Shown here: positions 1-34,984 of the stretch, piece by piece | How the letters are laid out: the number at the start of each line of letters is the position of its first letter | How positions within the stretch are numbered: position 1 is the stretch's first letter | NCBI GenBank assembly: GCA_031290985.1 | Contig: JARLJW010000094.1 | Coordinates: 2,368 to 66,367 of the forward strand | Length of the DNA stretch: 64,000 nucleotides | Direction of reading: 5' to 3' | DNA from: Verrucomicrobiia bacterium | GTDB taxonomy: Bacteria; Verrucomicrobiota; Verrucomicrobiia; Limisphaerales; UBA11358 | Notes under the pieces: model-generated | What the model was told of the DNA's origin: nothing | The model's input: only the letters and a program-made list of their open reading frames with translations | Database searches by the model: none | Position numbers and translations under genes: made by a program

Positions 1-1845
1 GAACCAGACTTCGCGGTCATGCTGCTTCGCGAGCTGCAGAATTTTCTGCTGCCCGGCCAGGGTCGTGATGCCGCCGTCCGCGCCGGTGAAGTTGAATGGA
101 TCGGTGATTACCTTGTGATAGGCAAAATCGCCGACAATCAAAATGATGTCAGGATCTTTGGCCCAAATCACCTCGGCCACGGCCTTGAATTTTTTATAGT
201 AGTCATCATCCACATGCTCCTCATTGCCCAGCTCGATGTATTTCAAATGGTACGGTGCCGGATGACCGTCCGCGACCCGCTTCCTGCCCCACTCGCTATC
301 CGGCTGGCCGTTGAGGTAATCCATCAAATCACTCATGTCCTGGGGCGACTCATTGATATTGAGATCGGGTATGCCGAGAATTCCAGTGGCTTCGCACAGG
401 TTCAAAAAATCAAAAATGCCCCAGCCGTCCGAAGCATACGGATACCATAGCCCCGCATAAGGCGGGCGTTGCGCCCGCGGCCCGATCATTTGCTTCCAGC
501 GATATTCCTGGCTATTGACCATGCTGCCGCCGTAACGGAGAATCGTGACCCCTTGATTGATTAATCCTTCAGCAACGTCCTTGCGCACCGGCAGATCCTT
601 GAAGCGTCCCCACGCACCCGGCTGCAAGAAAACATACCCCACGGAAACCGACCCGGGCTGCTTGAGCTTGACCACAAATCGTCCGGCCTTGTCGGCGGCA
701 TTCGGGGCCAGCTTGAAATCGAGCCGCTGCCAGTCGCCCGCCTTGAGTTTCAATGATTTTTCGGCATAGACCACCGGGCCTTTTGAGCCTTCCAAGGCGA
801 CAAATATTTCCGTTGGCGCTTGGGCCCGCGCCCAAAGATACCCTTCATAGCTTTTGCCTTTCACAAAATTCATGCCCCAGCGGTTGAGGCTTTGATTCTC
901 GATGCCGATGACACCCGAACCGCCGGCAAAAGTGATTTGCTGGCTTTGCTTGCCGGAGAATGCCCCCGGCGATTCCAAGGAAAGACTTCCCTCGACCGCG
1001 CCCTGCCGGACCGGGCGCCACATGCCGCTCACGCTGTCCGCCGGGCTGTTGCCCGCGTCATATTCAAACGCCACTTTTTCCTGCGCTGTGCCGGTGCCCA
1101 CGGAGAGGTTACGAAACGAAACCTTGTGCTGCCAGATCCGCAGCCCCACCGTGCCGGTTTCGAGCGGATGCTCGGTGTCCTCAAATTGCATCAGGCTCTT
1201 GCCGTTGACGAGCACCTCGAACGCTGTGGCCGTCATGCGGACCGTCAGCTTGATCCATTCGTTGACCGGCACGTCGCACGGCACGCGGCGAATCGGTTCC
1301 CAGTTCTGACGATGGCGGCCAACTACTAAAAATCCGGGCCTTTCGAGCGAAACTTCATAGCCGGCGAACACATCCGCGCCGATGCCGGCCTCGGTGACCT
1401 TGAATATCAGCCCCCCATTGCCGCCGCTTGCCTCCGTCAGCTTTACATCCACGCTGACCTCGCCCGCGGACAACGGCTGACCGTCCCAGACAATTTTTGA
1501 ACCATCGCTGCCAGCACCCTGGATGCTGCCATCGTCCGCCGGCGTCCAGCGGCCCGCGTAAGCCTTGAATCCCTTTAACGGCAGTTGGGCGGCGGGTTCG
1601 GCAAAGCTTTCGCCAAAAATCATCTGGCTGTCCAGGCCGCCATAAATCTCGTGGTTCACATCCTCGATGCAGGCCCCGGTCAGATAGGGCGAATTGGTGT
1701 GCAGCACTTGATCCGCATTCACCGTGATGGTGGCGACTTGCGTCTGACCAAGCGCCGTCAGCCCGCTGAGAATTCCCGCCAGGATGGCCGCCGCTTTTAT
1801 CAAACCGGTTTGCTGGTTCATTATATATTTTTGCTTTGTGTTCAT
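1..1845 (-). CDS. Secreted GH51-like (clan GH-A) glycoside hydrolase with an inserted concanavalin/DUF1080-like beta-sandwich. N-terminal 615 codons only; the C-terminus lies left of the window.
   Basis: Absent from the ORF track because it runs off the window edge. Manual minus-strand translation from ATG 1845 (in-frame ATG also at 1821) gives MNTKQKYIMNQQTGLIKAAAILAGILSGLTALGQTQ...CIEDVNHEIYGGLDSQMIFGESF...LRYGGSMVNSQEYRWKQMIGPRAQRPPYAGLWYPYASDGWGIFDFLNLCEA...YIELGNEE. It stays open to nt 1 and is colinear with the 1855..5247 protein. Confidence 0.75.
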   Translation of the reverse strand, partial: MNTKQKYIMNQQTGLIKAAAILAGILSGLTALGQTQVATITVNADQVLHTNSPYLTGACIEDVNHEIYGGLDSQMIFGESFAEPAAQLPLKGFKAYAGRWTPADDGSIQGAGSDGSKIVWDGQPLSAGEVSVDVKLTEASGGNGGLIFKVTEAGIGADVFAGYEVSLERPGFLVVGRHRQNWEPIRRVPCDVPVNEWIKLTVRMTATAFEVLVNGKSLMQFEDTEHPLETGTVGLRIWQHKVSFRNLSVGTGTAQEKVAFEYDAGNSPADSVSGMWRPVRQGAVEGSLSLESPGAFSGKQSQQITFAGGSGVIGIENQSLNRWGMNFVKGKSYEGYLWARAQAPTEIFVALEGSKGPVVYAEKSLKLKAGDWQRLDFKLAPNAADKAGRFVVKLKQPGSVSVGYVFLQPGAWGRFKDLPVRKDVAEGLINQGVTILRYGGSMVNSQEYRWKQMIGPRAQRPPYAGLWYPYASDGWGIFDFLNLCEATGILGIPDLNINESPQDMSDLMDYLNGQPDSEWGRKRVADGHPAPYHLKYIELGNEEHVDDDYYKKFKAVAEVIWAKDPDIILIVGDFAYHKVITDPFNFTGADGGITTLAGQQKILQLAKQHDREVWF

Positions 1846-1854
1846 GCAGGGAGT

Positions 1855-4800
1855 CTATTTGACAATCCGATAAAATGCCTGCCGGCTGGTCATGGGCACT
1901 GTTATCAAAAATGTCCCATTTGTCAGGACGTAGGACGACACCGCTGCCGGTGTCCAAGATGCACCCGCCCCAAGTTGAGCGGAAGTTTGAAGTGAGTAGC
2001 CGGCAATATAATCCGGCCAGGTGAACGCCAGGGTTTGCCCGGCGGTGGCGATGGATAGTTTGGGCATGGGCAAAGAATTGGGGCCTGAGGCATAATCATC
2101 GGCGATTTGCGCCTTCTTCATGGCTCCACTGTACATCCGGAACTCATCGATTGTGGCCACGCCACAATTGTCGCCCGCATAGGAAGATTTGCCGAGATAG
2201 CTATGCGCATTGACGATCGCCGAAATCGACAGGGTCACATTGCTGTTGATCCCCTGCAGAACGCCATTGGTGTAAACAGCCATGTACCCCGCAAGGGAAT
2301 CCCAAATCAGCACCAAATGGATCTTGCCCTGGTTATCCAATATAGGCGGCACGGCAATATTTTGGACGGAGGCATTGCCGGGGTCGGTGCCTGAGACTTC
2401 AAAATTAATGCCGCCGGGCCCATAACCGCTGTGCGGGGTGAAATCCAGGCAGTAACGGCCATTCCCGGTATCAGAGTTGGTGTCGCCAAAGTCAATCAGG
2501 CGACCCCAGGCACTATTGGTTCCGAACGCGACCCAAAACTCAAGCGTCACCGCCGTATAATTGGTGCTCGTGAGCAGATAAGGCGGCAATTCCGCGTAGT
2601 TTGTTTTCTGATTCAAACCGCCCAAAACCAGATTTCCATTCCCATCAATGCGGGCACCACCGTGAATAATGCCATTGGTAACACCCGGCACAGAATCAAC
2701 AAACTGAGTGGAATTGGCCGGTTCGTTAAAGCTCCAACGATGTGTGAGGGCCACCGGTGAAGCCGGCGGCGGCAGCATCGTTTGTCCTTGAAATGTGATG
2801 GTGGTGACGGAGTTTGCAGCAAACGTATAAGTGGTATTGCCGCCATTAAAATGATGCTGCCAACTGATGTTCGCCGGCACGAATCCCAAAGGAGCTTGCG
2901 CGGTGTTGACTGAACTTTGTAATGCCGCGAGCACCTGGACGGCGGCGGCGGGATTCGTTGGTACGAAACCGGAAATATTGATCGTGGCGGATTCCGGGGA
3001 ACTATTGAGATTGACCACCTGCAACACCAGTTGGCTTCCGTCCTGACTGCCTTCCGCACTGACATCCAAATCATTATTTGGATCGGCAACACTGCTCTGA
3101 ATTTCCAGCGGCTGAAAATTGGCCGCATACATCTGGGTCACATAGCCAGGCGGTTGCAACCAGACGTTGGACTGGTTCAGAAACAACAGCCCCTGATCCC
3201 AGCCGTTGTTGTTCTGGCCGTCGGGCTGCAAACCATTGGCCGACGTGGTGATTGGCAGCCGCCCATCCCGTTCAATCGCGTTGATCGCCAGCGCATTGCC
3301 CAAGGCGCGCCGCTGGGAGTGATTGTTCGCGTTCAGTTCAAACACCACCACCTGGTAATTCGCGCCATTGGCAATCTGCCCCAGCGCCGTGTCATACGAA
3401 AACATCCCCGCCAGACTGTTGTCCGCCCCCGGTCCGTCGGTCCACACATGCACATCAAACCACACCGCCCGGTTATTTGTCTGCGCCAGTTGCATAATCT
3501 GCTGGTGCGTCGCCAGGGTTGTGATGCCCGAATCGGCACCGCCGAAATTGAATGGATCGGTGATGACCGAATGATATGAAAAATCCCCGACGACCAGGAT
3601 GACATTCGTGTCCACGGCCCAAATGGCCTGGGCCACGGCTTGAAATTTCTGGTAATAGGTGTTGTTTACCGTCTCCTCATTGCCAAGTTCCAGGTATTTC
3701 AAGTTGTAAGGTTGTGGATGGCCCTCCGCCAGACGTCGCGCGCCCCAAACCGTGTTCGTTGAGCCGTTGGCGTATTGCATAAAATCCGCCATGTCCTGCG
3801 GCGTCTCGTTGATGTTGAAATCTGGAACCGCAAGAAATCCGGCCGCTTCACAGAAGTTCAGGAAGTCAGGAATGCCCCAGCCATCCGAGGAATACGGATA
3901 CCAGGTGCCGGTGTATGGCGGACGTTGATCACGCGGTCCAATCATGTTTTTCCAGCGGTATCCCGGGGCATTGACCATCGAACCACCGTAGCGTAAAACG
4001 GTGACGCCTTGGTTTATCAACCCCTGCACCACATCCTGGCGCACCGGCAACCCCTGAAAACATCCCCAGGGTCCGGGCTGTAAAAACGCATAACCCACCA
4101 CCACCGAGCCGGGCTGTTTCAGCTTGATGCTAAAACGCCCGTTGGCGTCGCTGGCGGCTGGTGTCAGGTTAAAAGCGAGCTGCTGCCAGTTGTTGCTGGT
4201 CACCAAAAGACTTTGCTCCGCATACACTGCGGATCCGTCCGCACTCTCCAATGACACCCAGAGGGTCGCTGGCGCATCGGCCCGCACATCGAGGGTTCCC
4301 GTGTAAGGCTTGCCGCCAACAAAGTTCAGTCCCCAATGGTTCAGCCCCTGATTGGCCAGGCCAATCGTTCCGGTTCCGCCCGTAAAGGAGAGCGCCTGGC
4401 TTTGCATTCCGACAAACACATTCGTGGTCGCCAACGAACCTTGGCCCGCGGCGGTGCCCGTGACGACCGGACTCCACATTCCGCTGATACTTCCATTTAA
4501 ACCATTGCCCGCGACCTGAAAGGGAATGTTGGTGCCATTGATGAAGAGATTTTGAAACTGTGCGTCCTGCTGCCAGGTGCGCAATCCCACCTGTCCGCTG
4601 GTGAGCGGCTGTTGGGTGTCGGTGTATTGCAAAACACTGTTGCTGTTGATGAGGATGTTGAGCGAGGCATTGGTGTATTGCACCTCCAAGGTGATCCATT
4701 GGCCGATGGGGACGGAGCAGGACACCTGACTTAAGGATGTGAAGTTCTGGACATGCCGCCCCAGCACCAAATAACCCGCCGGTGCCAATGAAATTTCATA

Positions 4801-5247
4801 GCCATTAAAAGCATCCGCACCCACGCCGGCCTGGCTGACTTGGAGAATCAAACCCGCATTGCCCCCGGCGTCGCTCGCGAACCACAACTGCACACGGACA
4901 TCCCCGCCCGTCTGGTTAAATCCATTGTCAACCAGCTTGGGCCCGCTGCCGGCCCCCGCCTGCAGCACCCCGTTTACCGGCAGCCAACTGCCACCGTAGG
5001 CGGTAAAGCCTGCCAGTGAGGTCGACGATGAACCCGGCTCCTGGAAACTTTCACCAAAGATCATCTGACTGTAGAGACCGCCGTATATCTCATGATTCAC
5101 ATCCTCAATACACGCCCCCGTCAGATAAGGCGAATTGGTGTGCAGCACCTGGCGGGAATTGACTGATATGCTTGCCAACTGGGCTTTCGCCTGGCTCGGC
5201 GAGCACACGATCGCCAGGGCGATTGCCAATGCGAAAAGTCTGTTCAT
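1855..5247 (-). CDS. Secreted multidomain GH51-like (clan GH-A) glycoside hydrolase with a beta-sandwich insert, a C-terminal LamG (Laminin_G_3-like) domain and a short C-terminal FYRI module
   Basis: The track ORF 1855..5493 overlaps the GRE gene. ATG at 5247 gives a signal peptide, MNRLFALAIALAIVCSPSQAKAQ. Motifs: CIEDVNHEIYGGLYSQMIFGESFQEP, VLRYGGSMVNAPGYRWKNMIGPRDQRPPY, YLELGNEE (GNE acid/base-like). C-terminal LamG: THRWSFNEPANS...IDEFRMYSGAM. Confidence 0.8.
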   Translation of the reverse strand: MNRLFALAIALAIVCSPSQAKAQLASISVNSRQVLHTNSPYLTGACIEDVNHEIYGGLYSQMIFGESFQEPGSSSTSLAGFTAYGGSWLPVNGVLQAGAGSGPKLVDNGFNQTGGDVRVQLWFASDAGGNAGLILQVSQAGVGADAFNGYEISLAPAGYLVLGRHVQNFTSLSQVSCSVPIGQWITLEVQYTNASLNILINSNSVLQYTDTQQPLTSGQVGLRTWQQDAQFQNLFINGTNIPFQVAGNGLNGSISGMWSPVVTGTAAGQGSLATTNVFVGMQSQALSFTGGTGTIGLANQGLNHWGLNFVGGKPYTGTLDVRADAPATLWVSLESADGSAVYAEQSLLVTSNNWQQLAFNLTPAASDANGRFSIKLKQPGSVVVGYAFLQPGPWGCFQGLPVRQDVVQGLINQGVTVLRYGGSMVNAPGYRWKNMIGPRDQRPPYTGTWYPYSSDGWGIPDFLNFCEAAGFLAVPDFNINETPQDMADFMQYANGSTNTVWGARRLAEGHPQPYNLKYLELGNEETVNNTYYQKFQAVAQAIWAVDTNVILVVGDFSYHSVITDPFNFGGADSGITTLATHQQIMQLAQTNNRAVWFDVHVWTDGPGADNSLAGMFSYDTALGQIANGANYQVVVFELNANNHSQRRALGNALAINAIERDGRLPITTSANGLQPDGQNNNGWDQGLLFLNQSNVWLQPPGYVTQMYAANFQPLEIQSSVADPNNDLDVSAEGSQDGSQLVLQVVNLNSSPESATINISGFVPTNPAAAVQVLAALQSSVNTAQAPLGFVPANISWQHHFNGGNTTYTFAANSVTTITFQGQTMLPPPASPVALTHRWSFNEPANSTQFVDSVPGVTNGIIHGGARIDGNGNLVLGGLNQKTNYAELPPYLLTSTNYTAVTLEFWVAFGTNSAWGRLIDFGDTNSDTGNGRYCLDFTPHSGYGPGGINFEVSGTDPGNASVQNIAVPPILDNQGKIHLVLIWDSLAGYMAVYTNGVLQGINSNVTLSISAIVNAHSYLGKSSYAGDNCGVATIDEFRMYSGAMKKAQIADDYASGPNSLPMPKLSIATAGQTLAFTWPDYIAGYSLQTSAQLGAGASWTPAAVSSYVLTNGTFLITVPMTSRQAFYRIVK

Positions 5248-5296
5248 GCCAATTTTTTGCTGTCGGTTCGCTTTTCCCAACAAGTTATGGCCGGCC

Positions 5297-7504
5297 TCAT
5301 CGAGTCGGTTCTCCATAGATATGGCGGCCAATAATCTGATTCTGATAAGCCGCGTCGAGCTCGCAAAAATAGCCGCTCCAGCCCCAGACACGCACCACGA
5401 GATTCTTGTGCCGTTCAGGATGCAACTGAGCATCTTTGAGGGACTCAACGTTAAGGGTGTTGATCTGAAGCTGCTGGCAACCCACGGCGGCAAAAAGGCG
5501 GATCAGCAAGGCCACTTGATGGATCGCCTCGGGATTTCGGAAAACGGTGTCGGACAATTCCAACGTCAGCGGCCCGCCATTGCAGATCCGTTGATAGTTA
5601 ATCTTGCTGTAACTCTTGAATACACTGAAGGGGCCGCGCACCTGCACCCCGGGCGAAGGTGCGAGGCTGGAACTAAAAAAACCGCCGCTTTTTCTGCCAT
5701 CCGCCGTGGCTCCCACCATCGGCTCGGTCATGGCCTCGTGGCCTTGCGCCAGCCAGACATAGAACATGGCCGAACCGCTCCCGGGTCGGAAAATGCCGCC
5801 GCGGCCATTATTGGGGAAGGATTCGCAAGCATCGGCAAACAGGTCAAATAACTTGACCAGCATGGCATCGGCACGTCCATCGTCATTGCCCACCTTGGGG
5901 GCTTCATCGAAGAGCTTTTTCCGCAGCTCCTCATCCTGCTCGAAGTTTGTATCCAGCGCAGCCAACAGGCGCCGGGCAGACAGTCCGCGCTCATCAAACA
6001 CGAAAGTCTTAACCGCCGCCAATGCGTCCGCCGCATTGGATGAACAGGCGCCGTGAATGCCAAAATTGTTATATTCCAGCCCCTGCGAGAGATCACAACC
6101 ACGTTCCAGGCAGCCGTTCATGAGCACGCTATAGTAAGGAGCCGGCGGAAGCAGCAGACGAGCGGAGCGCTCCGCCAGTTTTGCGACCTGCGAGCGCAGG
6201 TTCGCACCCACCCGGCCCAGTATTTTATCGAAGCCATCGCCGGCGGCCAATCCGGAGCGGATGGCGGAGTCAACCGCCGCTGGCATGGAAACCGCGCCGA
6301 TGTTCACGATTTCCATCCCCCGGCCGGGGATGAGAAATTCCCAGCAAGCCGCCACCGAATAGTCACGGGCATCCGCAAGAGCGTAGCCATGCGCCACCAA
6401 CCCCGGAATAACCACGTCGTCATTTGAGTATTGGGGAAATCCCAGGCCGATCTGGGTTAATTCCGCCGCCAGTTCCAGGAGGTCAAGGCCGGTGTCTTTC
6501 GTGACCCGCAGATTTATTTTCGGATCAATCATCCCCACGCCGCGCGCCACGCGCAGCACCATGTACGTCAATTCATTCACGCCGCTGGAGCCGTCGCGTT
6601 TCACTCCGCCGAGCATGAGCGATTGTCCATTGTCGCCTTGTTGGATGCCGGGATACAAATCACTGTCCTTGTTCAAAGACAGGAAAAATTCAGCCAGCAG
6701 TTGTTCGGCGCCATTTAGATCTACTCGGCCCAAATCCAGGTCCCTTTTTAGATACGGCCACATGTATTGGTCAAATCGTCCGAGCCCGCAGTGATAATGT
6801 CCCCCCAGCCACAAAACGGCATGGCCCAGGCGCAGGGCTTGCAGCGCCTCATGAAAGCTGCTTGCGGGTTGCGCGGGCACGCGATAGAGAATTTTGGCCA
6901 GATCATGGCGCTGATTTCGCGAAGCCTCCTCCGCATAACGACACGCCAAATCCAACACCGCATCAATCGTCTCGATGGCGCCGTCCAGAAATTCAACCGC
7001 CTTTGGATCATCTTTCAGTCTGGCGCGGGAGGCGAGCGCAACGTTGCGCCGGCTTAACAGGCCTTGGGACAGAACCATTTCCCAGTCCGCGCAAATGTTG
7101 CTGATCGGCCCCAGTTCGTGCAGCGCGCAGCCGGAGGCCAGGTTCCGCTGTTGGGATTCGCTGTAAACCGGCGGAACGTTTCCGGTCGTCCGCGTAAAGA
7201 CGATTCGCTCCTCCGGGGGAATGACAATTTTCTGGGCCTCGCACATGCGCCGGATCAGGCGCGCGGCCCGCTGCGGCCAGGAGAGCTGTTCGGCGTCGCA
7301 TTCGGCAAGCAAATCCACCTCCGCCGAAGTGCGATATTGCTTGTAATGCCCGTCCCGCAACGCCTGCTTCATTTCCACCAACCGCGGTTCCAATTCAAAC
7401 CGGTTGCGGGCTCTTGAATGGTGGCTTAATTCCACTCCATCAATGCCCGTAACTGGAGGTTTGAACCTTGGATGGGTGATGGGCTCGTTTAAGACGTTAT
7501 TCAT
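5297..7504 (-). CDS. Glycyl radical enzyme (PFL superfamily, Cys-x-Glu eliminase/dehydratase-like), 735 aa
   Basis: C-terminal glycyl-radical loop NLVVRVWGWSGYFCEL (Gly708, codon 5381..5383). Thiyl loop YSVAACWEFLIPG (Cys387, codon 6344..6346; Glu389). The start ATG overlaps the activase stop (ATGA at 7501..7504). Confidence 0.9.
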   Translation of the reverse strand: MNNVLNEPITHPRFKPPVTGIDGVELSHHSRARNRFELEPRLVEMKQALRDGHYKQYRTSAEVDLLAECDAEQLSWPQRAARLIRRMCEAQKIVIPPEERIVFTRTTGNVPPVYSESQQRNLASGCALHELGPISNICADWEMVLSQGLLSRRNVALASRARLKDDPKAVEFLDGAIETIDAVLDLACRYAEEASRNQRHDLAKILYRVPAQPASSFHEALQALRLGHAVLWLGGHYHCGLGRFDQYMWPYLKRDLDLGRVDLNGAEQLLAEFFLSLNKDSDLYPGIQQGDNGQSLMLGGVKRDGSSGVNELTYMVLRVARGVGMIDPKINLRVTKDTGLDLLELAAELTQIGLGFPQYSNDDVVIPGLVAHGYALADARDYSVAACWEFLIPGRGMEIVNIGAVSMPAAVDSAIRSGLAAGDGFDKILGRVGANLRSQVAKLAERSARLLLPPAPYYSVLMNGCLERGCDLSQGLEYNNFGIHGACSSNAADALAAVKTFVFDERGLSARRLLAALDTNFEQDEELRKKLFDEAPKVGNDDGRADAMLVKLFDLFADACESFPNNGRGGIFRPGSGSAMFYVWLAQGHEAMTEPMVGATADGRKSGGFFSSSLAPSPGVQVRGPFSVFKSYSKINYQRICNGGPLTLELSDTVFRNPEAIHQVALLIRLFAAVGCQQLQINTLNVESLKDAQLHPERHKNLVVRVWGWSGYFCELDAAYQNQIIGRHIYGEPTR

Positions 7505-8256
7505 ACGACTCTCACTTTCAGACCTGCGGATTTAAAGCAGGACAAGTTGATGTTTGACCTCTCAGATTCATCAAAAGTCGGCTCGAAAATCATGCCGCAC
7601 GCGGCATATTTGGCGCCGGCAGCCTGGTTATAAGGAAGCAAATCTATCCGCTGCAAACCGGGCATGCCCGCGACCGTCCGGGCAATCGCGGACAAATTAG
7701 CCCCGGTATCGGTCACTCCGGGAATCAACGGCACGCGAATGACAAAGGGAACGCCAAGCTCATTCAAGACGCGGAGGTTCCTTAAGATCGGCTGGTTGTC
7801 CACGCCCGTATGCGCCAGATGCGCGACGGGATCAATGAGCTTCAAGTCAAAGTAAACGAGCTGTGATTTGGCGGCGACCTTGCGAAAACTGTCCTCCTCG
7901 GCATATCCGGAGGTATCCAGCAAAACATGGACCCCCGCTAATTGATCAATCACCTCCGCAAGGAAGTCCGCTTGCGCCAGAGGTTCGCCCCCGGAAAAGG
8001 TCACGCCGCCTTCACCCACGCGCAGCCAAGCGGCCAGACTGTTGAGGCGCACGGCCAATGCCCGGGAACTGAAGGTCACCCCCGCCAAACGTTCGCCGGC
8101 GCTCCCGTGCAGAACCTGCGGTGCAGGCGACTGGCCTTCGGGATTGTGGCACCAGGAGCAGCGCAACGGACAGCCTTTCAGGAATACCGTCACCCGCAGA
8201 CCGGGTCCGTCATGCACGGCAAATTCCTTGATGTCAAACACAACGCCGGTGAGCAT
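7501..8256 (-). CDS. Glycyl-radical enzyme activating protein (radical SAM, short PflA-like form)
   Basis: Motifs FAVHDGPGLRVTVFLKGCPLRCSWCHNPE (CX3CX2C) and GGVTFSGGEPL. ATG 8256 (MLTGVVFDIKEF) is preferred; upstream ATG 8301 is also in frame but overlaps the binding-protein gene. There is no second Cys-rich ferredoxin-like block. Confidence 0.88.
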   Translation of the reverse strand: MLTGVVFDIKEFAVHDGPGLRVTVFLKGCPLRCSWCHNPEGQSPAPQVLHGSAGERLAGVTFSSRALAVRLNSLAAWLRVGEGGVTFSGGEPLAQADFLAEVIDQLAGVHVLLDTSGYAEEDSFRKVAAKSQLVYFDLKLIDPVAHLAHTGVDNQPILRNLRVLNELGVPFVIRVPLIPGVTDTGANLSAIARTVAGMPGLQRIDLLPYNQAAGAKYAACGMIFEPTFDESERSNINLSCFKSAGLKVRVV

Positions 8257-8285
8257 TTGAATTAGCAATAAAGCAAACCGAATTG

Positions 8286-9302
8286 TTATTGGCGCAGCCA
8301 TTGCTTCCAGTTTTGTTCGTATTGCTGCACGTCATCCTTCGTGACCGGGGGCAGTTCCGAATAATCCAGCACGTTCGCCGGATTTTTCCCCAGGATGACT
8401 TTGTCGGCCAGCAACTCCACCGAACGGACGCCCCAGCGGTAGGTCTGCTGGGCGTAAAGTTTCTGGACGACGCCCTTGGTCAGATAGGGCAATTCGGCCG
8501 GCAAGGCATCCATCGCCACAATCTTGACCTTGCCCGGCTCCCATTTCAGCAAAGCATCGGTAAACAAGCTCCACGAACCAATCATCGCCCAGCCATCAAT
8601 GTCGGGATTGGCCGTCTGCACCTCCTCGATTTTGGCGGCGGCATCCTGGGGAACTTCTTTGCTGTAATAGACGCCGCGAATGGTCAGGTTGGGATAATTC
8701 GTGGCTTCATCCAAGGCGCCTTTGATTCGATTCTGAATGTTGCGGGCATTCTGATTTCCGCCCGGGATGGCCACCACGTGTTTTCCCGGCCCCAACACCG
8801 CCGCCAGTTCCCGCATGATGATATGGCCGCATTCGATGTCATCCGTGCCATGATAACAAAAGCGCTTGCTGGCGGGCGCATCGCTGTCAAAGCACATGAC
8901 CGCCACGCCTTGCCCAACGGCCTTGTCAATGGCCGGCGTCAGCGTCTCGGCTTCGCTGCAACTCACGCTGATTCCGTCCACGCCCTGTAAAACCAATTGC
9001 TCGATGTTCTCGACCTGCTTCTGCGCGTCGTCTTCATTGGGCGTGCGCCAGAGCACGGTGATTTTCACGCCCAGTTTTTTGCCCAGCTCGGCGGCCGCAT
9101 CCTCGGCCCCCACCCGCGCCGCCTGAAAAACCGGATTGGACTGGCTTTTGGCCACCAGGGCGAAAGTGTATTCGGACTTTTTCGCGGTTGGTCCCGCGGC
9201 TTCGCCGGCAGCCGGCCCATTTTTCTTTTGATCGCAGCCGGTGATAAACGAAACGGCCAGACCCGCAATTGCGATGGTTTTGAAGAATTGTTGTATTTTC
9301 AT
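8286..9302 (-). CDS. Sugar ABC transporter substrate-binding lipoprotein (RbsB/Peripla_BP_4-like)
   Basis: Lipobox AVSFITGC. Typical periplasmic sugar-binding fold sequence (FALVAKSQSNPVFQAA...DGISVS...). Start overlaps the permease stop (ATGA 9299..9302). Confidence 0.85.
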   Translation of the reverse strand: MKIQQFFKTIAIAGLAVSFITGCDQKKNGPAAGEAAGPTAKKSEYTFALVAKSQSNPVFQAARVGAEDAAAELGKKLGVKITVLWRTPNEDDAQKQVENIEQLVLQGVDGISVSCSEAETLTPAIDKAVGQGVAVMCFDSDAPASKRFCYHGTDDIECGHIIMRELAAVLGPGKHVVAIPGGNQNARNIQNRIKGALDEATNYPNLTIRGVYYSKEVPQDAAAKIEEVQTANPDIDGWAMIGSWSLFTDALLKWEPGKVKIVAMDALPAELPYLTKGVVQKLYAQQTYRWGVRSVELLADKVILGKNPANVLDYSELPPVTKDDVQQYEQNWKQWLRQ

Positions 9303-10483
9303 GGTGTTGGTCGTGATTGTTCAATTTGAGAGGCACCTTCCTGTCGAGATTCCTTGGCGGCCAGCGCACTCCGCGCCATGCGTTTTTCGCGCAACGTGTC
9401 ATTGATGCGGTCCAGCAGCACCGCCAGGACGATGACGGCTCCGATGATGATTTGACTGTAGTTTTGGTCAATGTTGAGGATGATGATGCCGTTGTTGATC
9501 ATCTGGATGATCAGCGCCCCCAGCAATGCGCCCAAGGCCGTGCCGCGACCGCCGACGAGGCTCGCTCCGCCCACCACCGCCGCGGCGATCACATCCAATT
9601 CATATCCTTTGCCCGCATCCGACGAAGCCGATCCATAATATCCCAGCATGATCATCGCCGCGACGCCGGCGGCAAGTCCGCTGAACGCATAGACCTTTAC
9701 CTTGACGCGGTTCACGGGCAGCCCGCTGAACAGCGACGCTTGTTCGTTGCCACCCACGGCAAAAATGTGGCGACCTGTCACGGCGTGCTTGAGATACCAT
9801 CCGGCTAGGGCAGTGACACCCAGCATGATGGCCAGCGGCACGGGATAGAGATTGGCTCCCTGCCAGTTGATTTCGTAACGGATCAAGCCGTCGGTGAATT
9901 GCGCGGGGAAATGCGTATAGGCCTGGGCCTTCGTCATCACGAACGCCACGCCGCGGTAGATGGCCATGGTTCCCAAGGTGATAACGAACGGGTGCACCCG
10001 CAGAAAGACGACCCCCAGCCCGTTCAACAGACCGCACAATGTTCCGGTTCCGAGACAAATAGCAATCGCCCCCGGCACCACCCAAAAGGGAGACGCCCCG
10101 GCCCCCGGCCCCCGGGGCCCAAAGTGGTTCAGAAACATGGCGCCACAAACGGCCGCCAGGCAATACATGGAGCCCACCGACAAATCTATGCCGCCGGTGA
10201 TGATGACGAAAGTTGCGCCCACCGCCATGATGGCAAAAAATGAAGTGTTCTTGGCCAGATTGCCCAGATTGTCCGCGCGGAGAAATTTGTTCACGGTGAC
10301 GATCCCACCCGTGTCCCGATTAGGCACCTCGAGCGTGCCGCAAAAAAGGGAAAGCAACAATCCCAACGCCAGCACAACCCCCAAAAGTCCGGTCTCCTTA
10401 AACCGTGGATGACGTGCAGCCGTCACGGTCGACAACCCTTGGGAGGATTCTGCATTGAGCAAGGCTGGCTGGTCGGTTTTCAT
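9299..10483 (-). CDS. Sugar ABC transporter permease (RbsC/BPD_transp_2 type)
   Basis: 394 aa, multi-TM, with motifs such as GGIDLSVGS and GGRGTALGALLGALII typical of ribose/xylose-family permeases. Confidence 0.85.
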   Translation of the reverse strand: MKTDQPALLNAESSQGLSTVTAARHPRFKETGLLGVVLALGLLLSLFCGTLEVPNRDTGGIVTVNKFLRADNLGNLAKNTSFFAIMAVGATFVIITGGIDLSVGSMYCLAAVCGAMFLNHFGPRGPGAGASPFWVVPGAIAICLGTGTLCGLLNGLGVVFLRVHPFVITLGTMAIYRGVAFVMTKAQAYTHFPAQFTDGLIRYEINWQGANLYPVPLAIMLGVTALAGWYLKHAVTGRHIFAVGGNEQASLFSGLPVNRVKVKVYAFSGLAAGVAAMIMLGYYGSASSDAGKGYELDVIAAAVVGGASLVGGRGTALGALLGALIIQMINNGIIILNIDQNYSQIIIGAVIVLAVLLDRINDTLREKRMARSALAAKESRQEGASQIEQSRPTP

Positions 10484-10486
10484 GGT

Positions 10487-12031
10487 TTAGGCAACCAACA
10501 CGTTTTCTGGTATCGCCTGCAGGCTGGGGACATTTTGGCCGGCCATGAGTTGCATTACCCGCTCTTGCGTTGCTTCCGCGCGATCCAGCCTTCCCGCAAT
10601 CCGACCATTGCGCATCACAATCACCCGGGTGCTGAGGTTGAGCACTTCCGGCAACTCCGAGGAGATCATCAAGACCGCCAGCCCGGCCGCTGCCAGTTCG
10701 TCAATGAGCCGGTGAATCTCCGCTTTGGCCCCCACATCCACGCCCCGGGTCGGCTCGTCCAGAATCAGGATGCGACATTGGCGGGCGAGCCACTTGGCGA
10801 GGACAAGCTTTTGCTGGTTGCCTCCGGAAAGTGTTTGTGCCGAAACCTGCGGAGAAGCCGCCTTCACCTGAAGTTTCTGGAAAAAATCGGCGATCACGCT
10901 GCGTTCTTTCGCGAGGCGGATGACCCCATGCCGGCTTAACCGGTCCAGCGAGGAAAGGGTGATGTTGCTGCCGCATTCCATGCCCAGGACCAGCCCTTGT
11001 TTTTTGCGATCCTCGCTTACCAACCCGATGCCCAGGGCCATGGCATCGCGCGGGCAGCGCACGGCGGCTTTCCGTCCGGCCACAAAAACCCCGCCGGTCA
11101 TTCTCGCATCCAGCCCAAAGATTCCCAGGGCGACTTCGCTGCGTCCAGCGCCCACCAACCCCGCCATGCCCACGACTTCGCCGGCGCGCAATGAAAAACT
11201 GATGCTGCGAAACTTGCCCGGCGATGAAAGCTCCTCCACGCGCAAACATTCCGGCCCCGGGGCGCGTTCCACATGCTCCGGAAAAAGCTTCTGCCAGGTG
11301 CGGCCGATCATCAAGCGGACCAAGTCCCCCTCGTTGGTCTGCGCCAGCGGCATCGTGGCCACATGCTGGCTGTCACGCATCACGGTCACCGTGTCGCAAA
11401 AGCGGAAAATTTCGTCCATGCGGTGCGAGACATAGATGATGGTTGCCCCGCGTTTGCGCAGCGTGCCGATCAATTCCTCCAGCCGCCGCGCTTCCGATGC
11501 CGACAGGGAACTCGTGGGCTCGTCCAGCACGAAAATATCCGCGCCCGTGGCCAGCGCGGCCGCGACTTGTACCATCTGCATGCGCCCGGGACTCAAGCGC
11601 CCCAATTCTTCACGCACGTCGCAATCCGCCCCGATGGCGTCGAGATGCGATTGGGCCCGCTCTTCGAGCCGCCGCCAATCCACCCGGCCAAAACGCCGCG
11701 GCAAATCGGACAGGCAGACGTTCTCCGCAACGCTCAGGTTGGGACAAAAGGAAAGCTCTTGATGAACGATGGCCACCCCGGCGCGTTGGGCTTCGCGCGG
11801 CGAGCGGAAATGCCGGGCCACGCCCTTGATTTCCACCCGGCCTTCGTCCGGACGATGTATTCCCGCCAAGATTTTCCCGAGCGTGCTCTTGCCCGCGCCA
11901 TTCTCACCCATCAAGGCGTGGCAGCTTCCGCCCGCCACGTCAAAGCTTACGTTTTGCAGCGCGACAGTTCCCGGAAACCGTTTGCTGATGTTGTAAAAGC
12001 GAACGCTGGGAATGAAAGGCTCGACACTCAA
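10487..12031 (-). CDS. Sugar ABC transporter ATP-binding protein (duplicated ABC domains, RbsA/MglA type)
   Basis: Walker A GENGAGKST, signatures LSPGRMQ/LSGGNQQK, Walker B FVLDEPTSSL/LILDEPTRGVD. The start codon at 12031 is TTG. Confidence 0.9.
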   Translation of the reverse strand: MSVEPFIPSVRFYNISKRFPGTVALQNVSFDVAGGSCHALMGENGAGKSTLGKILAGIHRPDEGRVEIKGVARHFRSPREAQRAGVAIVHQELSFCPNLSVAENVCLSDLPRRFGRVDWRRLEERAQSHLDAIGADCDVREELGRLSPGRMQMVQVAAALATGADIFVLDEPTSSLSASEARRLEELIGTLRKRGATIIYVSHRMDEIFRFCDTVTVMRDSQHVATMPLAQTNEGDLVRLMIGRTWQKLFPEHVERAPGPECLRVEELSSPGKFRSISFSLRAGEVVGMAGLVGAGRSEVALGIFGLDARMTGGVFVAGRKAAVRCPRDAMALGIGLVSEDRKKQGLVLGMECGSNITLSSLDRLSRHGVIRLAKERSVIADFFQKLQVKAASPQVSAQTLSGGNQQKLVLAKWLARQCRILILDEPTRGVDVGAKAEIHRLIDELAAAGLAVLMISSELPEVLNLSTRVIVMRNGRIAGRLDRAEATQERVMQLMAGQNVPSLQAIPENVLVA

Positions 12032-12054
12032 GATTGCACAAGGAAATGGCCGGG

Positions 12055-13101
12055 TTATGGATTCGGCGGGGGCGGCAGGATTTTGGGCTGCGCCGCCCGC
12101 TCAAACGTATCCACCGGCACGACGATGCGTTTGCCGCTCGAATGAGATTTAATTGCGGCCATCGCCAGTTGCAACGCCCGCCGTCCGGCCCGGGCATGTA
12201 CCGGCGGTTGTTTGCCGGCTTTGAAGGCCTCCAGCACCGCATCCATGTGCCGGTCAAACGTGAGATAAAAATCACGGTCGCGGTCATTGAAATAACCGGA
12301 CTGCCAAACCTCGGCGGTTTCGGATCCCGCCGCATTAAATGTATAGCGACGCACCGTATCCTCGATGAGAATCCGGCCTTTCGTCCCATTTATTTCCACG
12401 CGGTGCGTGTCAGGATAGGCATAGGAAGAATCATAGGAGCCGACCAGGCTGCCAACCGCGCCGTTCGCAAAATGCAGTGCCAGCACCAGGGTGCGATAAG
12501 TTCCCTTGTGCGTTTTATCGGTCATTTGCGCCATGACCGAGTCAATGGGCCCGCAGAGAAACTCCAACATGTCAAACGCATGGCACTGGGTCTCGAACAG
12601 GTTGTTGAATGGATGGCTGGTGCCGCCCTCGCCTCCGAAGCGCCAGGTGGCAAAGGTCAAATCTCCCAGCCTGCCTTTTTGAATGGCCTCGTGCGCCAAA
12701 GCCACCGGCCGGGCATAGTGATGATTGAAATTGATGCCAAAGAACAGTTTGCGCTTCGCCGCTGCCTGCAAGAGCTGATCCGCTTCTTTCAAGTCAAACA
12801 CCAGCGGCTTTTCAACAAATAAAGGCACGCCCGCCCGGATCACTTCCATGGTGGGCTGAAAATGGCCATCATTGGGCAGCGAGAGAAAAGCCAGATCGGG
12901 CTTCTCTTCCGCCAGCATTTCCGGGATGTTCGTATAGGCGCGAACCCCAAACTGCGCGGCGCGGGCCTTCGTTTTTTCCGGGGTGCGGCCGGCAATCGCG
13001 CGGAAATCCACATCGGGACGCTGCGACAAAATGCGGGCGTGCTGAAGTCCCCATCCACCCGCGCCAATCAGGACGGCTTTTATTTTGGCTGGAGCGCTCA
13101 T
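12055..13101 (-). CDS. Gfo/Idh/MocA family oxidoreductase
   Basis: N-terminal Rossmann motif KAVLIGAGGWGLQHA followed by ...VFVEKPL. The ATG overlaps the stop of the upstream dehydrogenase (ATGA 13098..13101). Confidence 0.85.
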   Translation of the reverse strand: MSAPAKIKAVLIGAGGWGLQHARILSQRPDVDFRAIAGRTPEKTKARAAQFGVRAYTNIPEMLAEEKPDLAFLSLPNDGHFQPTMEVIRAGVPLFVEKPLVFDLKEADQLLQAAAKRKLFFGINFNHHYARPVALAHEAIQKGRLGDLTFATWRFGGEGGTSHPFNNLFETQCHAFDMLEFLCGPIDSVMAQMTDKTHKGTYRTLVLALHFANGAVGSLVGSYDSSYAYPDTHRVEINGTKGRILIEDTVRRYTFNAAGSETAEVWQSGYFNDRDRDFYLTFDRHMDAVLEAFKAGKQPPVHARAGRRALQLAMAAIKSHSSGKRIVVPVDTFERAAQPKILPPPPNP

Positions 13102-14129
13102 TGTTCAATAATTACCTTGCCGGTTTCACCACTGAAGAACAGCTCGAAGGATTTTTGGATTTCATCCACCCCAAAACGATGGGTGATGATCTGGTTGAGA
13201 TAGGAGCGATGCTGCGTGAGCCGGCGAAGGTTGGCCGGCAATTCATCAAAACGGAAGTATTCGCTGCCCACCACGCTCCGCTCCGGCGCGATGATGTCGG
13301 GTGAAACTTTCAACGCGATGCCTTCCCCATGCCCGACGCAAATCAGCGACCCCCGCTGGGCCAGCGCGCGATGGCCTTCCTCCCGCGCGGCCTGTTTGCC
13401 ACTTGTGTCCACCGCCATGTCAGCCGCATCAGCGCCATGCGCCTTCAGCCCGTCCTTGATGGAGCCTTTGGCAACATTGATCGGGAGACCGCCGAGTTTC
13501 TCCGCCAGCTTGAGACGGTAGGGAACAATGTCCGTCAAATAGACCTTCACCTGCTGGCCAAGAATAATCTTCGCCATCATCAAAACCCCCAGCCCAATCG
13601 GGCCGGCTCCGAGAACCAGCAGCGACTCGATGTCCGGCCGCATCAACTGGCAACGCTCAATCGCGTGGCCGCCCGTACCCATGATGTCGAGCAGCAGCGT
13701 GCCCTCCGTGGCCGAAAATTCCTTGGGCACCGGGAAAAAAATGCTTTCATGAACCAATTCATACTGCCCATATCCGCCGTCGCGATTGAAACCCATGTCG
13801 CCGCGCTTTTGCAGGCATTGATTGGTGAAGCCCAGCCGGCAGGAGCGGCAGTGCCCGCAAAAATCCATCAAGAAAACCACGCCCGGCGTGCCAACGGGAA
13901 TGCGCGTATCGGGTCCGACGGCAACCACCGTGCCCGCCGCCTCATGCCCGGGGGTGGTGGGTGTTCCGTCAAAAAATTGCGGCCTTTCCGAGCCGCAAAG
14001 CGCGTTGGCCTGGACGCGCATCAGGAGCTGGCCCGGACCTGGCTGCGGAACCGGTTTTTCGCCGAATTTGATTTGTTTGTTCCCGGCAAAGACCGGAACC
14101 CTGCATTGGGATGGTATGGATTGTGTCAT
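13098..14129 (-). CDS. Zn-dependent alcohol/polyol dehydrogenase (MDR family, sorbitol/threonine dehydrogenase-like)
   Basis: Motifs CGSERPQ...GHEAAGTVVAVG, CGHCRSCRLG (structural Zn) and GAGPIGLG (NAD). The track start 14168 is TTG; the first ATG is 14129 (MTQSIPSQ). Confidence 0.85.
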   Translation of the reverse strand: MTQSIPSQCRVPVFAGNKQIKFGEKPVPQPGPGQLLMRVQANALCGSERPQFFDGTPTTPGHEAAGTVVAVGPDTRIPVGTPGVVFLMDFCGHCRSCRLGFTNQCLQKRGDMGFNRDGGYGQYELVHESIFFPVPKEFSATEGTLLLDIMGTGGHAIERCQLMRPDIESLLVLGAGPIGLGVLMMAKIILGQQVKVYLTDIVPYRLKLAEKLGGLPINVAKGSIKDGLKAHGADAADMAVDTSGKQAAREEGHRALAQRGSLICVGHGEGIALKVSPDIIAPERSVVGSEYFRFDELPANLRRLTQHRSYLNQIITHRFGVDEIQKSFELFFSGETGKVIIEQ

Positions 14130-14245
14130 GCAAAAAAATTGAATGTGGAATTTGAATTTGCCGGCCAACTAGTTGGATTGCTGGGTGTCACCGCCGTAAA
14201 ACCCAGGGTGAATATTACATGTTTTCATTGCGCATGTTTTAACTG

Positions 14246-15136
14246 CTACAGATGCGAAGTGCTGTGGCTGATCATCCATTGGATGTCGCGGTCAGTGGGA
14301 AACGTGCCGCTAAAACCGGTATTAGGATTGGTATATTTGACCGACTGACTGGTGGTGGCTTCCAGCCATTTGTGCAACTCTGAATGGCCGTCCGCAAAAG
14401 TGAGGGAATTGGCCTGGTTATGAAAACTGCCCGGCAAATCACTTCCCCACTTGATGGTCGTCGTCGGATTGATGACCAGCCAGCCGTCGTTGATGCTATC
14501 CGGATGCTCATCCGTGAACACCCAAAGATCCACCGGCGCGGGAGAATTCATGTCTGTCGTCTTATTGTAGTAATGATAGGAAGCCGTAAAGTCATTCGGC
14601 GAGGGCGGAGGCGAACCGCTGCCGTATCCGCCCCCGATAAAAGCATTCAGCGAATTGCTGCGCAGTCGGGGAACCTGACTCCCGCCTTCGGAACACAAAT
14701 AGACATCCCCTGGACATTTATAAACGCCGAGATTCTGGGTCAGAGGCCATAGCAGTCCATTTTTAATCGTGTCAACATTGGTGTTGTCCGTATTGTCAGG
14801 CGCCCAGCTCTCGGTGCCCAACACCCAATTGGGAGACCCCATCCCCGGCATCATCGTATTCCGGCAACAGCGCTCATGATCATCACCGGAATACATTATC
14901 CAGGCCAGACCGAGCTGCTTGTGATTGCTCAAACACTGTATCTGTTGTGCCTTAATCTTGGCCTTGCTCAAGGCGGGCAGCAGCATCGCGGCCAGAATCG
15001 CAATGATGGCAATGACGACAAGCAGCTCAATCAAGGTAAAAGCGGCAAACCCATGGGCCGCAAACCTGTCCCGCCGTCGGCTCTTCGCCCTAACTTCCTG
15101 CCCGCCGGGCCTTTTGCAAGTGCCTGAGATATTCAT
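14246..15136 (-). CDS. DUF1559 / H-X9-DG protein with a prepilin-type N-terminal cleavage/methylation motif
   Basis: Motifs [28 protein letters not shown] and, at the C-terminus, [13 protein letters not shown] (an exact H-X9-DG). The track start 15238 is TTG; the first ATG is 15136. Confidence 0.8.
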
Positions 15137-15335: not shown

Positions 15336-15364
15336 CCATGAGTTTTAGCGGCTGGCATTTTGAG
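15336..15364. promoter_or_regulatory. Conserved intergenic box 1 (CCATGAGTTTTAGCGGCTGGCATTTTGAG). A second copy lies at 26433..26461.
   Basis: 25 of 29 nt are identical to 26433..26461. Both copies are preceded 17-18 nt upstream by ATCCTCCC and followed about 125 nt later by box 2. Confidence 0.35.
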
Positions 15365-26432: not shown

Positions 26433-26461
26433 CCATGAGTTTTGGCGGCTGAATTTTTGAG
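26433..26461. promoter_or_regulatory. Second copy of conserved intergenic box 1 (CCATGAGTTTTGGCGGCTGAATTTTTGAG)
   Basis: See 15336..15364. ATCCTCCC lies at 26407..26414 and box 2 at 26585..26605. A local hairpin TTTTGAGT-N9-ACTCAAAA overlaps the 3' end. Confidence 0.35.
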
Positions 26462-29347: not shown

Positions 29348-29354
29348 GATCGTT

Positions 29355-30881: not shown

Positions 30882-30943
30882 GCTTTGATGATAACTTTAT
30901 CGAAATAAAAAGCTCCAAAACAATTGCCAGGCGGTTCCCGCTG

Positions 30944-31124: not shown

Positions 31125-31138
31125 CTGCCTTTGACAGC

Positions 31139-34975: not shown

Positions 34976-34984
34976 CATGAAATT

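Follow-up and report, generated by a model that had tools for sequence, protein, structure and literature searches.

An uncharacterised clade of glycyl radical enzymes in arabinofuranoside- and arabinose-linked loci, seen from an operon of a Verrucomicrobiia bacterium

The DNA considered here, a stretch of 64,000 nucleotides from a Verrucomicrobiia bacterium (contig JARLJW010000094.1; hereafter the window, meaning the whole stretch), begins with an operon that joins a glycyl radical enzyme (GRE) and its activase to a sugar importer, two dehydrogenases and two secreted glycosidases. The GRE belongs to an uncharacterised clade that spans at least seven phyla, and its genes keep company with sugar transporters, arabinofuranosidases and genes of L-arabinose catabolism. 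The explanation that we find best for the whole, and hold with moderate confidence, is that the region forms the distal portion of a glycan-utilisation regulon induced by sugar, with a carbohydrate-linked radical step.

Glycyl radical enzyme and activase

The GRE gene (5297..7504, minus strand) encodes a protein of 735 aa with a PFL-like domain (PF02901, E = 2e-91) and a Gly_radical domain (PF01228, E = 4e-17). As for all genes of the window, it was taken from an open reading frame (ORF) listing with translation, and domains were assigned by Pfam and NCBIfam searches with the cutoffs of the models. Residue conservation was read from 75 homologues in fetched loci, 74 of them aligned at the glycyl loop. 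This loop, RVWGW with Gly708, is present in all 74; the cysteine loop, A-C387-W388-E389, keeps C-W-E in 75 of 75 and aligns with the GCVE loop of glycerol dehydratase and PflD, Cys387 matching Cys433 of the former and the catalytic cysteine of the latter. GREs of the 1,2-eliminase and isomerase classes are recognised by a Cys-x-Glu motif (PMC13450708). Because both loops are present, the enzyme is classed with the eliminase/isomerase type and not as a pyruvate formate-lyase. The latter identity was rejected: the cysteine loop has no Cys-Cys pair, and TIGR01255 gives 51 bits against a cutoff of 994. Source annotations as ‘formate C-acetyltransferase’ are wrong, since the Cys-Cys pair of pyruvate formate-lyase is missing.

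Two asparagines, standing where dehydratases have His and Asp, complete the clade signature of CWE and RVWGW. In the profile alignment Asn136 (74 of 75 homologues) takes the place of His164 of glycerol dehydratase, a general acid, His166 of propanediol dehydratase and Asp216 of CutC; Asn401 (75 of 75) takes that of Asp447 of glycerol dehydratase and Thr502 of CutC. It can be argued from this exchange that the leaving group, or its activation, would differ from that of the known dehydratases.

No NCBIfam model reaches its cutoff on the GRE. The best is that of the PFL2/glycerol dehydratase subfamily (TIGR01774), with 294 bits against 678; membership among the glycerol and propanediol dehydratases (PFL2-3) was rejected on this score and on the asparagines at the His and Asp positions. 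Membership in the CutC, HypD and sulfonate lyase (HpsG/HpfG) groups fails at 205-240 bits against cutoffs of 1000-1100, and that of the aromatic decarboxylases (HPAD, the 4-hydroxyphenylacetate enzyme, and indoleacetate decarboxylase) at 134-174 bits against 1100-1150. Choline, hydroxyproline or isethionate, which an earlier note on this DNA had named as the substrates that would speak against its carbohydrate route, are not expected; the equivalogs concerned score 224-240 bits against at least 1000. In a profile search of the PDB, CutC, PflD and glycerol dehydratase come out as the best relatives, all with similar scores. A protein search returns a dense set of GRE homologues of about 710-740 aa, 66-91% identical to that of the window; those with named sources are from Verrucomicrobiota.

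The activase gene (7501..8256, or to 8301, minus strand) precedes that of the GRE and encodes a radical S-adenosylmethionine enzyme of a short form (251 aa, or 266 aa from the ATG at 8301). It passes TIGR02494 (200 bits, cutoff 174) and carries the cluster motif CPLRCSWC (CX3CX2C). In alignment it has no Cys-rich, two-cluster ferredoxin-like insert, a feature usual in activases of eliminase-type GREs and carried by YbiY and PflC. The activase of a distant family member (L076) keeps the insert; by this comparison it appears to have been lost within the GRE clade.

Genomic neighbourhoods across phyla

Homologues were sought in one genome per species with two family-specific peptide patterns, which gave 578 confirmed stretches. 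Neighbourhoods were analysed for the best 80 of these, in 77 of which a GRE gene was called; ORFs within 8 kb of it were called and clustered, and recurrent clusters were annotated. The best 80 of the 578 come from Verrucomicrobiota, Planctomycetota, Chloroflexota, Acidobacteriota, Lentisphaerota/Kiritimatiellota, Spirochaetota, Alphaproteobacteria, Bacteroidota and Bacillota. Individual loci are designated below by L numbers; L086 and L087 were counted separately from the 77 when co-occurrence of the dehydrogenases was scored.

Sugar uptake genes often accompany the GRE: a transporter component (CUT2 ATP-binding cassette (ABC), CUT1 permease or sugar-porter of the major facilitator superfamily (MFS)) lies within 8 kb of the GRE in 45 of the 77 loci. 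A LacI or XylR-like regulator is present in 20/77. Arabinofuranosidases of the GH51-like, GH51 or GH127 kinds are found in 15 loci, from Verrucomicrobiota, Planctomycetota, Chloroflexota, Acidobacteriota and Bacteroidota, and AraA, an FGGY kinase or AraD in 13. Altogether 28 loci hold some arabinose-related gene (arabinofuranosidase or L-arabinose catabolism), and 55 some recurrent carbohydrate family. The activase stands beside the GRE in 57 of the 77 loci by ORF calling, and, when the window proteins serve as tblastn queries, in about 67 of 80. The link drawn in the earlier note between the GRE, extracellular glycoside cleavage and sugar import is therefore real, as the counts for transporters and arabinofuranosidases attest. 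Its proposal that GRE, activase, importer and both dehydrogenases might co-occur across genomes is borne out in part: activase and sugar transporters do accompany the GRE, but the two dehydrogenases occur together in a single locus of the 77, plus L086 and L087.

In Chloroflexota the AraA beside the GRE passes the equivalog cutoff for L-arabinose isomerase (833 vs 622), and the AraD and GalK there pass their NCBIfam cutoffs as well. Since AraA genes usually occur once per genome, finding one within 8 kb of the GRE in 11 of 77 genomes should far exceed the expectation for a random 18-kb window, by reasoning rather than by calculation.

Gene order differs by lineage. Anaerolineae have binding protein-ATPase-permease-(three URO-D)-corrinoid protein-activase-GRE-AraA-M24-zinc dehydrogenase-kinase-AraD; Sedimentisphaerales have LacI-binding protein-ATPase-permease-activase-GRE-GH51-like-GH51; Bacteroidota have mutarotase-GH27-GH51-MFS-activase-GRE and then a phosphatase of the haloacid dehalogenase (HAD) superfamily. 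GH51-like or GH127 genes lie directly 3' of the GRE in Verrucomicrobiota and Planctomycetota.

Further partners recur. Chloroflexota loci (L008, L010, L011, L015, L018-L020, L042, L056, L059, L073 and others) hold three paralogous MtaA/CmuA-like URO-D genes and a corrinoid (B12-binding) protein; this set, with a divergent transglutaminase-like gene, lies between the sugar-type ABC importer and activase-GRE-AraA, and it puts a system for methyl transfer or O-demethylation within an arabinose operon. HAD-superfamily phosphatases are coupled to the 3' end of the GRE in L086 (9008-9685) and L087 (12199-13230), both of the beta-phosphoglucomutase family, and, as MDP-1 family members, in the Bacteroidota loci L072 (12067-12552) and L077 (11941-12411); in Escherichia coli the HAD-superfamily gene ybiV (L084, 4214-5029) sits beside ybiW. 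Such coupling hints at a phosphorylated intermediate. In the distant members L074 (12058-12663) and L080 (12058-12660) the gene for a Sua5/YciO/YrdC-domain protein runs over the stop codon of the GRE, which is an unusual association for such an enzyme.

Organisation of the operon in the window

From 15136 down to 1 the window is filled by ten co-directional genes. Their common minus-strand orientation agrees with the earlier note, which had counted eleven; its own gene list also gives ten. Three ATGA start/stop overlaps that it reported are real when read from the sequence: at 13098-13101 between the two dehydrogenase genes, at 9299-9302 between permease and binding protein, and at 7501-7504 between activase and GRE. 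Gaps of 3-50 nt had been claimed for the remaining junctions. This is right for ATPase/permease (3 nt), for the two glycosidase genes (9 nt), for the second dehydrogenase and ATPase (23 nt) and for the GRE and the first glycosidase (46 nt), but not for the first gene, whose stop lies 116 nt from the start of the zinc dehydrogenase (ATG at 14129), or 77 nt if the TTG at 14168 is used. Binding protein and activase overlap by 16 nt or are separated by 29 nt, depending on the ATG chosen. No terminator-like site falls in any intergenic gap of the operon; the sigma-70 promoter and terminator scan behind this result gave counts at chance level overall and is uninformative. The overlaps, the short gaps, the gaps free of terminator-like sites and the conserved upstream cis element described below lend indirect support to a single transcription unit. 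The functional unit reaches past 15136, to the cis element at 15336-15364 and to genes as far as 27836.

The domain calls of the earlier note hold, by Pfam and NCBIfam, for every gene except the first (14246..15136, minus strand). Its DUF1559 label is not significant (PF07596, 13.2 bits against a cutoff of 23.3, E = 0.09); the product is a prepilin-type N-terminal methylation protein (PF07963 N_methyl, E = 3e-6) with a C-terminal H-x9-DG motif. Prepilin-like homologues occupy the same position in L005, L002 and L087.

The importer is a CUT2 monosaccharide system, with all three genes on the minus strand. Its fused double ATPase (10487..12031, two ABC_tran domains) is closest among NCBIfam models to AraG, the L-arabinose ATPase (550 bits vs a cutoff of 689), and then to XylG and RbsA. 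The permease (9299..10483, BPD_transp_2) matches ribose, GguB and AraH-like models, all below cutoff. The binding protein (8286..9302) is a lipoprotein with a lipobox, ITGC, and a Peripla_BP_4 domain (PF13407, E = 2e-48); its gene is the one joined to the permease by an ATGA overlap, and its best solved relatives are glucose/xylose, arabinose or ribose binders.

Both glycosidase genes are also on the minus strand. The first, GH_A (1855..5250), encodes 1131 aa with ASD1_dom, Alpha-L-AF_C, an inserted DUF1080 (3keto-disac_hyd) and a C-terminal LamG (Laminin_G_3) domain; orthologues lie 3' of the GRE in nine loci of three phyla. The second, GH_B (1..1845), is a paralogue with a DUF1080 domain whose C-terminal part lies beyond the start of the window: about 615 of about 820 aa are inside, judged by the 826-aa orthologue in L081. 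Each has a signal peptide besides the DUF1080 (3-keto-disaccharide-hydrolase-like) domain. Their similarity to GH51 is distant, with a partial ASD1_dom (E = 5e-16), Alpha-L-AF_C at 21 bits against a threshold of 27 and the ArfA equivalog at 69 against 625 bits. Among solved structures they have relatives only in the GH51 arabinofuranosidases of fungi and bacteria, and they carry the GNE acid/base motif (LELGNEE). They are predicted to be exo-glycosidases of a divergent GH51-like kind.

Dehydrogenases and gene order in close relatives

The first dehydrogenase (13098..14129, minus strand; 343 aa from the ATG at 14129) is a zinc-dependent medium-chain enzyme of the threonine/sorbitol dehydrogenase type, with ADH_N and ADH_zinc_N domains; it reaches no NCBIfam equivalog cutoff, and its best solved relatives are L-threonine 3-dehydrogenase, ketose reductase and sorbitol dehydrogenase. 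Orthologues of 71-85% identity are found in L005 and L004, and a zinc dehydrogenase stands at the same position in L086 and L087. The second (12055..13101, minus strand) begins in an ATGA overlap with the first and encodes a cytoplasmic NAD(P) oxidoreductase of the Gfo/Idh/MocA family (PF01408, PF02894, PF22725). Its best NCBIfam match is inositol 2-dehydrogenase, at 126 bits against a cutoff of 355, and its solved relatives are inositol dehydrogenase-like.

The full order, that is, prepilin-like gene, zinc dehydrogenase, Gfo/Idh/MocA gene, ABC importer, activase, GRE and GH51-like genes, recurs in the closest relatives L005, L086 and L087. GRE identity to the window is 91% in L086, 88% in L087, 83% in L081 and 78% in L082. 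In L086 and L087 the beta-phosphoglucomutase-family HAD hydrolase overlaps the GRE stop, and L086 also has a GH127 gene; neither is found at the corresponding position in the window, which lost or never had the GRE-coupled phosphatase gene. L082 runs regulator-ABC-activase-GRE-GH127-GH51-like, without the dehydrogenases. L081 has regulator, giant LamG protein, activase, GRE and two GH51-like genes, and neither ABC importer nor dehydrogenases.

The conserved core is thus a sugar sensor or importer with activase-GRE and arabinofuranosidase-like enzymes. The dehydrogenases lie outside it, because L081 and L082 are devoid of them and the pair occurs only in the nearest relatives. Among the 77 loci, zinc dehydrogenase superfamily genes are present in 12, mostly only 25-28% identical to that of the window, and Gfo/Idh/MocA genes in three; the two occur together in one, plus L086 and L087. 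At 25-28% identity the Chloroflexota and Acidobacteriota zinc dehydrogenases near the GRE were rejected as orthologues of the one in the window. The pair is a lineage-specific add-on and not a defining step, and the redox tailoring that the earlier note had given to the two dehydrogenases falls away as a conserved part of the route: even L081, with a GRE 83% identical to that of the window, is without them.

L005 shows a second pattern: its dehydrogenases are 85% identical to those of the window, its GRE 70% and its activase 56%. The greater divergence of GRE and activase than of the flanking genes suggests module exchange. The L005 contig (CAYTJG010000069.1) is labelled ‘uncultured Bifidobacteriaceae’ yet has the Verrucomicrobial gene order and the prepilin-like gene; it is probably mis-binned.

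Cis element, regulator and the wider window

A 29-nt cis element (CCATGAGTTTTAGCGGCTGGCATTTTGAG) at 15336..15364, 200 nt upstream of the first operon gene, is a candidate operator or promoter element. A second copy lies at 26433..26461, between the gene for a giant LamG protein and a divergent regulator gene. The window holds exactly two copies of CCATGAGTTTTNGCGGCTGNNNTTTTGAG, with none expected from 100 shuffles, and a search of 684 kb of shuffled loci gave no match. Related copies are found upstream of the GRE unit in L081, L087, L002 and L005, and beside the regulator gene in L081, L002 and L004.

The giant protein (20660..26194, minus strand; 1844 aa) is secreted and built of LamG and Ig repeats (five Laminin_G_3, with Big_2/Ig); its orthologues in L087 (82%) and L081 (49%) lie directly upstream of the GRE unit. 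The regulator (26649..27836, plus strand) is XylR-like, with a sugar-sensor domain and an AraC helix-turn-helix (Peripla_BP_3, HTH_18, HTH_AraC, PBP1_XylR), and is 50-69% identical to regulators directly beside activase-GRE in L002, L003, L004, L006, L016, L028, L048 and L062, which represent four phyla. Judged from sequence, the shared element and the orthologous regulator would place the operon and the giant LamG protein in one regulon. Between the LamG gene and the GRE operon lie two plus-strand genes, for a TPR protein (15598-18114) and a carbamoyltransferase (18332-20146). Since the LamG part and the GRE unit are contiguous in L087 and L081, this pair, with the second copy of the element, looks like an insertion.

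Beyond the regulator, minus-strand genes at 27896-46142 encode GH27, an ABC ATPase, an SSF symporter, an aldose 1-epimerase (mutarotase), an AraD-like protein, an FGGY kinase, GH127, a GH51 enzyme with a DUF1080 insertion, AraA, a xylose-isomerase-like TIM barrel and a ROK protein. With araA, araB-like and araD genes together with GH127, GH51, GH27 and mutarotase, the set for use of arabinosides and L-arabinose is complete; it lies 13-31 kb from the head of the operon. The 29-nt element is absent upstream of these ara genes, the two copies being the only ones in the window even at up to six mismatches, so the ara cluster is not shown to be under the same regulator. A GH88 gene follows the ara set (47192-48481). 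Genes with no evident link to the operon are those for a second prepilin-type N-methylation protein (49594-50583, plus strand), for two ABC-2 membrane proteins (48681-49484 and 57357-58298, minus strand) and for PAS histidine kinase/response regulators (51538-54183 and 60260-63951).

Proposed role and alternatives

The explanation that we favour connects these observations as follows. The secreted GH51-like enzymes would release a furanose-type monosaccharide from arabinofuranoside-rich plant glycans; the binding lipoprotein and ABC system would import it; in the activated GRE a thiyl radical on Cys387 would take a hydrogen from a carbinol carbon of the sugar or a close derivative; Glu389 would deprotonate a hydroxyl, and the neighbouring C-O bond (ring, ether or hydroxyl) would break to leave a deoxy-keto sugar, as in YbiW/PflD or the eliminases. 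In this lineage the zinc and Gfo/Idh/MocA dehydrogenases might reduce or oxidise the GRE product, or prepare the substrate. A more specific version, which we offer tentatively, is that this short clade with the CWE loop carries out an undescribed radical C-O cleavage of a non-phosphorylated sugar of the arabino/galacto series, and so opens a new anaerobic branch of plant-pentose use. As candidate reactions, the enzyme might open the ring of a furanose or anhydro-pentitol, or might eliminate an alcohol from a sugar that is O-methylated or ether-linked. The step suggested in the earlier note, a radical dehydration or C-C/C-O cleavage of a polyol or keto-sugar, is a candidate too. Other substrates that came into consideration, with nothing to favour them, were apiose, galactofuranose, levoglucosan-type anhydrosugars, L-arabinitol and feruloyl-arabinose.

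Several points weigh against a radical step on a carbohydrate. The present evidence fits a sugar and a small downstream metabolite alike as the GRE substrate. A complete AraA/AraB/AraD route in GRE-bearing organisms would make a radical step on L-arabinose itself redundant; this sugar is an unlikely substrate because the AraA route is found in the same loci. The dehydrogenases are missing from most relatives, and any role of theirs in the pathway is speculative. Of the 77 loci, 22 have no recurrent carbohydrate gene within 8 kb, many of these contigs being short. The counts also take kindred genomes as independent, and the 21 Chloroflexota-type loci may represent few evolutionary events. As for chemistry, Asn136 and Asn401 replace the His and Asp that serve hydroxyl departure in glycerol and propanediol dehydratase, so a plain dehydratase reaction is, on this alignment, not assured. 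An AlphaFold2 model of the GRE, built on a 13-sequence alignment, has a mean confidence (pLDDT) of 60.6, with the Cys and Gly loops below 50; this quality is too low for inspection of the pocket, and the model was not used.

The small-metabolite alternative takes the GRE for a microcompartment-free dehydratase of a diol or triol (1,2-propanediol, ethylene glycol or glycerol) downstream of sugar catabolism, like propanediol dehydratase in fucose and rhamnose clusters, with the zinc dehydrogenase taking the aldehyde product. In its favour, glycerol and propanediol dehydratase score among the best of the solved relatives, L081 has a FucI/FucU pair downstream and L044 a fucosidase beside the GRE, and zinc dehydrogenase superfamily genes occur in the 12 loci already mentioned. 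We nevertheless consider this unlikely: the glycerol dehydratase model is far from its cutoff (294 vs 678 bits); Asn stands in the places of His164 and Asp447 in 74-75 of the 75 family members; no CoA-acylating aldehyde dehydrogenase, phosphotransacylase or shell protein is among the recurrent neighbour families that were annotated; arabinose breakdown by the standard route gives no diol; and the direct neighbours are transporters, sugar regulators and glycosidases. Quite unlikely, in our estimation, is a radical ether or glycoside lyase, modelled on the elimination of trimethylamine by CutC or of sulfite by IslA, that would act on a vicinal hydroxy-ether and expel its alcohol, either an aglycone or, with an O-methyl sugar, methanol. 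The MtaA/CmuA-like URO-D genes and corrinoid protein that directly precede activase-GRE in 14-22 Chloroflexota loci would suit it, as would Asn at the position of CutC Asp216 and the dehydratase His, a residue that could fit another leaving group. By record titles the samples come from peat, soil and groundwater, where O-methyl sugars occur. This is, however, an argument by analogy alone; the URO-D/corrinoid set accompanies the GRE in one phylum only and is missing from the window, which also lacks methanol-handling genes.

That the GRE might be a divergent HypD-like enzyme, acting on hydroxyproline or a related amino acid from arabinosylated extensins, seems very improbable. Near the GRE there are recurrent GH127 beta-L-arabinofuranosidases, enzymes that act on hydroxyproline-linked arabinosides; in five Chloroflexota loci AraA is followed by an M24 peptidase-family gene; and the best specific NCBIfam match of the activase, below cutoff, is hydroxyproline dehydratase activase. 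The GRE itself gives only 240 bits against a HypD cutoff of 1100 and has Asn for the conserved His of the HypD type (residue list from PMC13450708), while transporters and regulators are of the sugar type and no proline-pathway gene is among the recurrent neighbours. A different kind of objection concerns the extent of the module: the dehydrogenases and the prepilin-like gene could be passengers, with importer, activase, GRE and glycosidase as the only functional parts. This is plausible, although we think it less likely than not. The loci L081 and L082 without either dehydrogenase, the single locus of 77 with both and the unequal identities in L005 (85% for the dehydrogenases; 70% and 56% for GRE and activase), which suggest modules with different histories, all speak for it; on the other side, the dehydrogenase genes are coupled by an ATGA overlap and lie inside the unit downstream of the shared cis element, and L005, L086 and L087 keep the same order.

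Relation to known systems

Sugar-acting GREs were described in 2024: YbiW and PflD are C-O lyases of 1,5-anhydroglucitol-6-phosphate and 1,5-anhydromannitol-6-phosphate in ‘anhydroglycolysis’ (PMC13450708). The system in the window resembles theirs in the Cys-x-Glu loop, the adjacent activase and the setting among sugar uptake genes; PflD is the second-best solved relative of the GRE (224-308 bits), and the HAD phosphatase beside the GRE in the closest Verrucomicrobial relatives and in Bacteroidota recalls ybiV alongside ybiW in E. coli. The GRE is, however, only 26-27% identical to E. coli YbiW and PflD and about 70-100 residues shorter; their conserved His is Asn136 here; the importer is ABC or MFS, for unphosphorylated sugar, and not a phosphotransferase system (PTS); and the activase is without the ferredoxin-like insert of YbiY and PflC. 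By Pfam search the operon contains no PTS, kinase or aldolase of the transaldolase family (fructose-6-phosphate type). Membership in the YbiW/PflD group was rejected on the identity and on these missing genes.

The B12-independent glycerol and propanediol dehydratases share with the GRE the CXE loop, an equivalent of His281 (His238), a PFL2-type fold signature and scores of 230-304 bits; they differ in having His164/166 and Asp447 for Asn136 and Asn401, and Val for Trp in the CXE loop; near the GRE there are no aldehyde-processing or microcompartment genes. CutC is the best PDB profile match (314 bits) and also has a CXE loop. Its substrate-specifying Asp216 falls at the position of Asn136, so that this position tunes leaving-group chemistry; TIGR04394, with a cutoff of 1050, nevertheless gives only 240 bits, the GRE keeps neither Asp216 nor Thr502, and there is neither a cut-type microcompartment nor a choline context at the locus of the window. 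The setting as a whole is closest to that of bacterial AraA-AraB-AraD loci, with GH51/GH127/GH43 enzymes and AraFGH-type importers: the clade sits in such loci across phyla, the ABC ATPase of the window is nearest to AraG, and a complete ara set is nearby. Unlike described arabinose loci, those of the window and its relatives add a glycyl radical enzyme.

The June 2026 review of GREs (PMC13450708) contains no arabinose-linked member, and literature searches on GREs with arabinose, arabinofuranosidase, Anaerolineae, Planctomycetes, corrinoid or pentose gave no description of the clade; the Limisphaera paper mentions no GRE. The view in the earlier note, which knew of no described GRE pathway with this gene set, accordingly stands for the gene set, and needs the qualification that GREs acting on sugars have been known since 2024. 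What is new is an uncharacterised, widespread GRE clade in a new metabolic context, and not sugar-acting GREs as such.

Known GRE functions number only a few dozen, and YbiW and PflD are the sole sugar-acting ones among them. The clade is present in hundreds of species of abundant and poorly cultured anaerobes of soil, peat and groundwater, and is repeatedly tied to the utilisation of arabinofuranosides and arabinose. The exchange of catalytic His and Asp for Asn may uncover a new leaving-group chemistry among GREs, and the locus offers every component that a direct test requires, from the binding protein, the regulator and its candidate operator to the glycosidases, the GRE and the activase. 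Once the substrate is identified, the widespread ‘pyruvate formate-lyase’ annotation of the clade would be mended, and both the anaerobic breakdown of plant cell walls and the carbon turnover of anoxic soils would gain a radical step. If the proposal is true, an anaerobic branch of plant-pentose use would be widespread in the Verrucomicrobiota, Planctomycetota, Chloroflexota and Acidobacteriota of soil, peat and groundwater.

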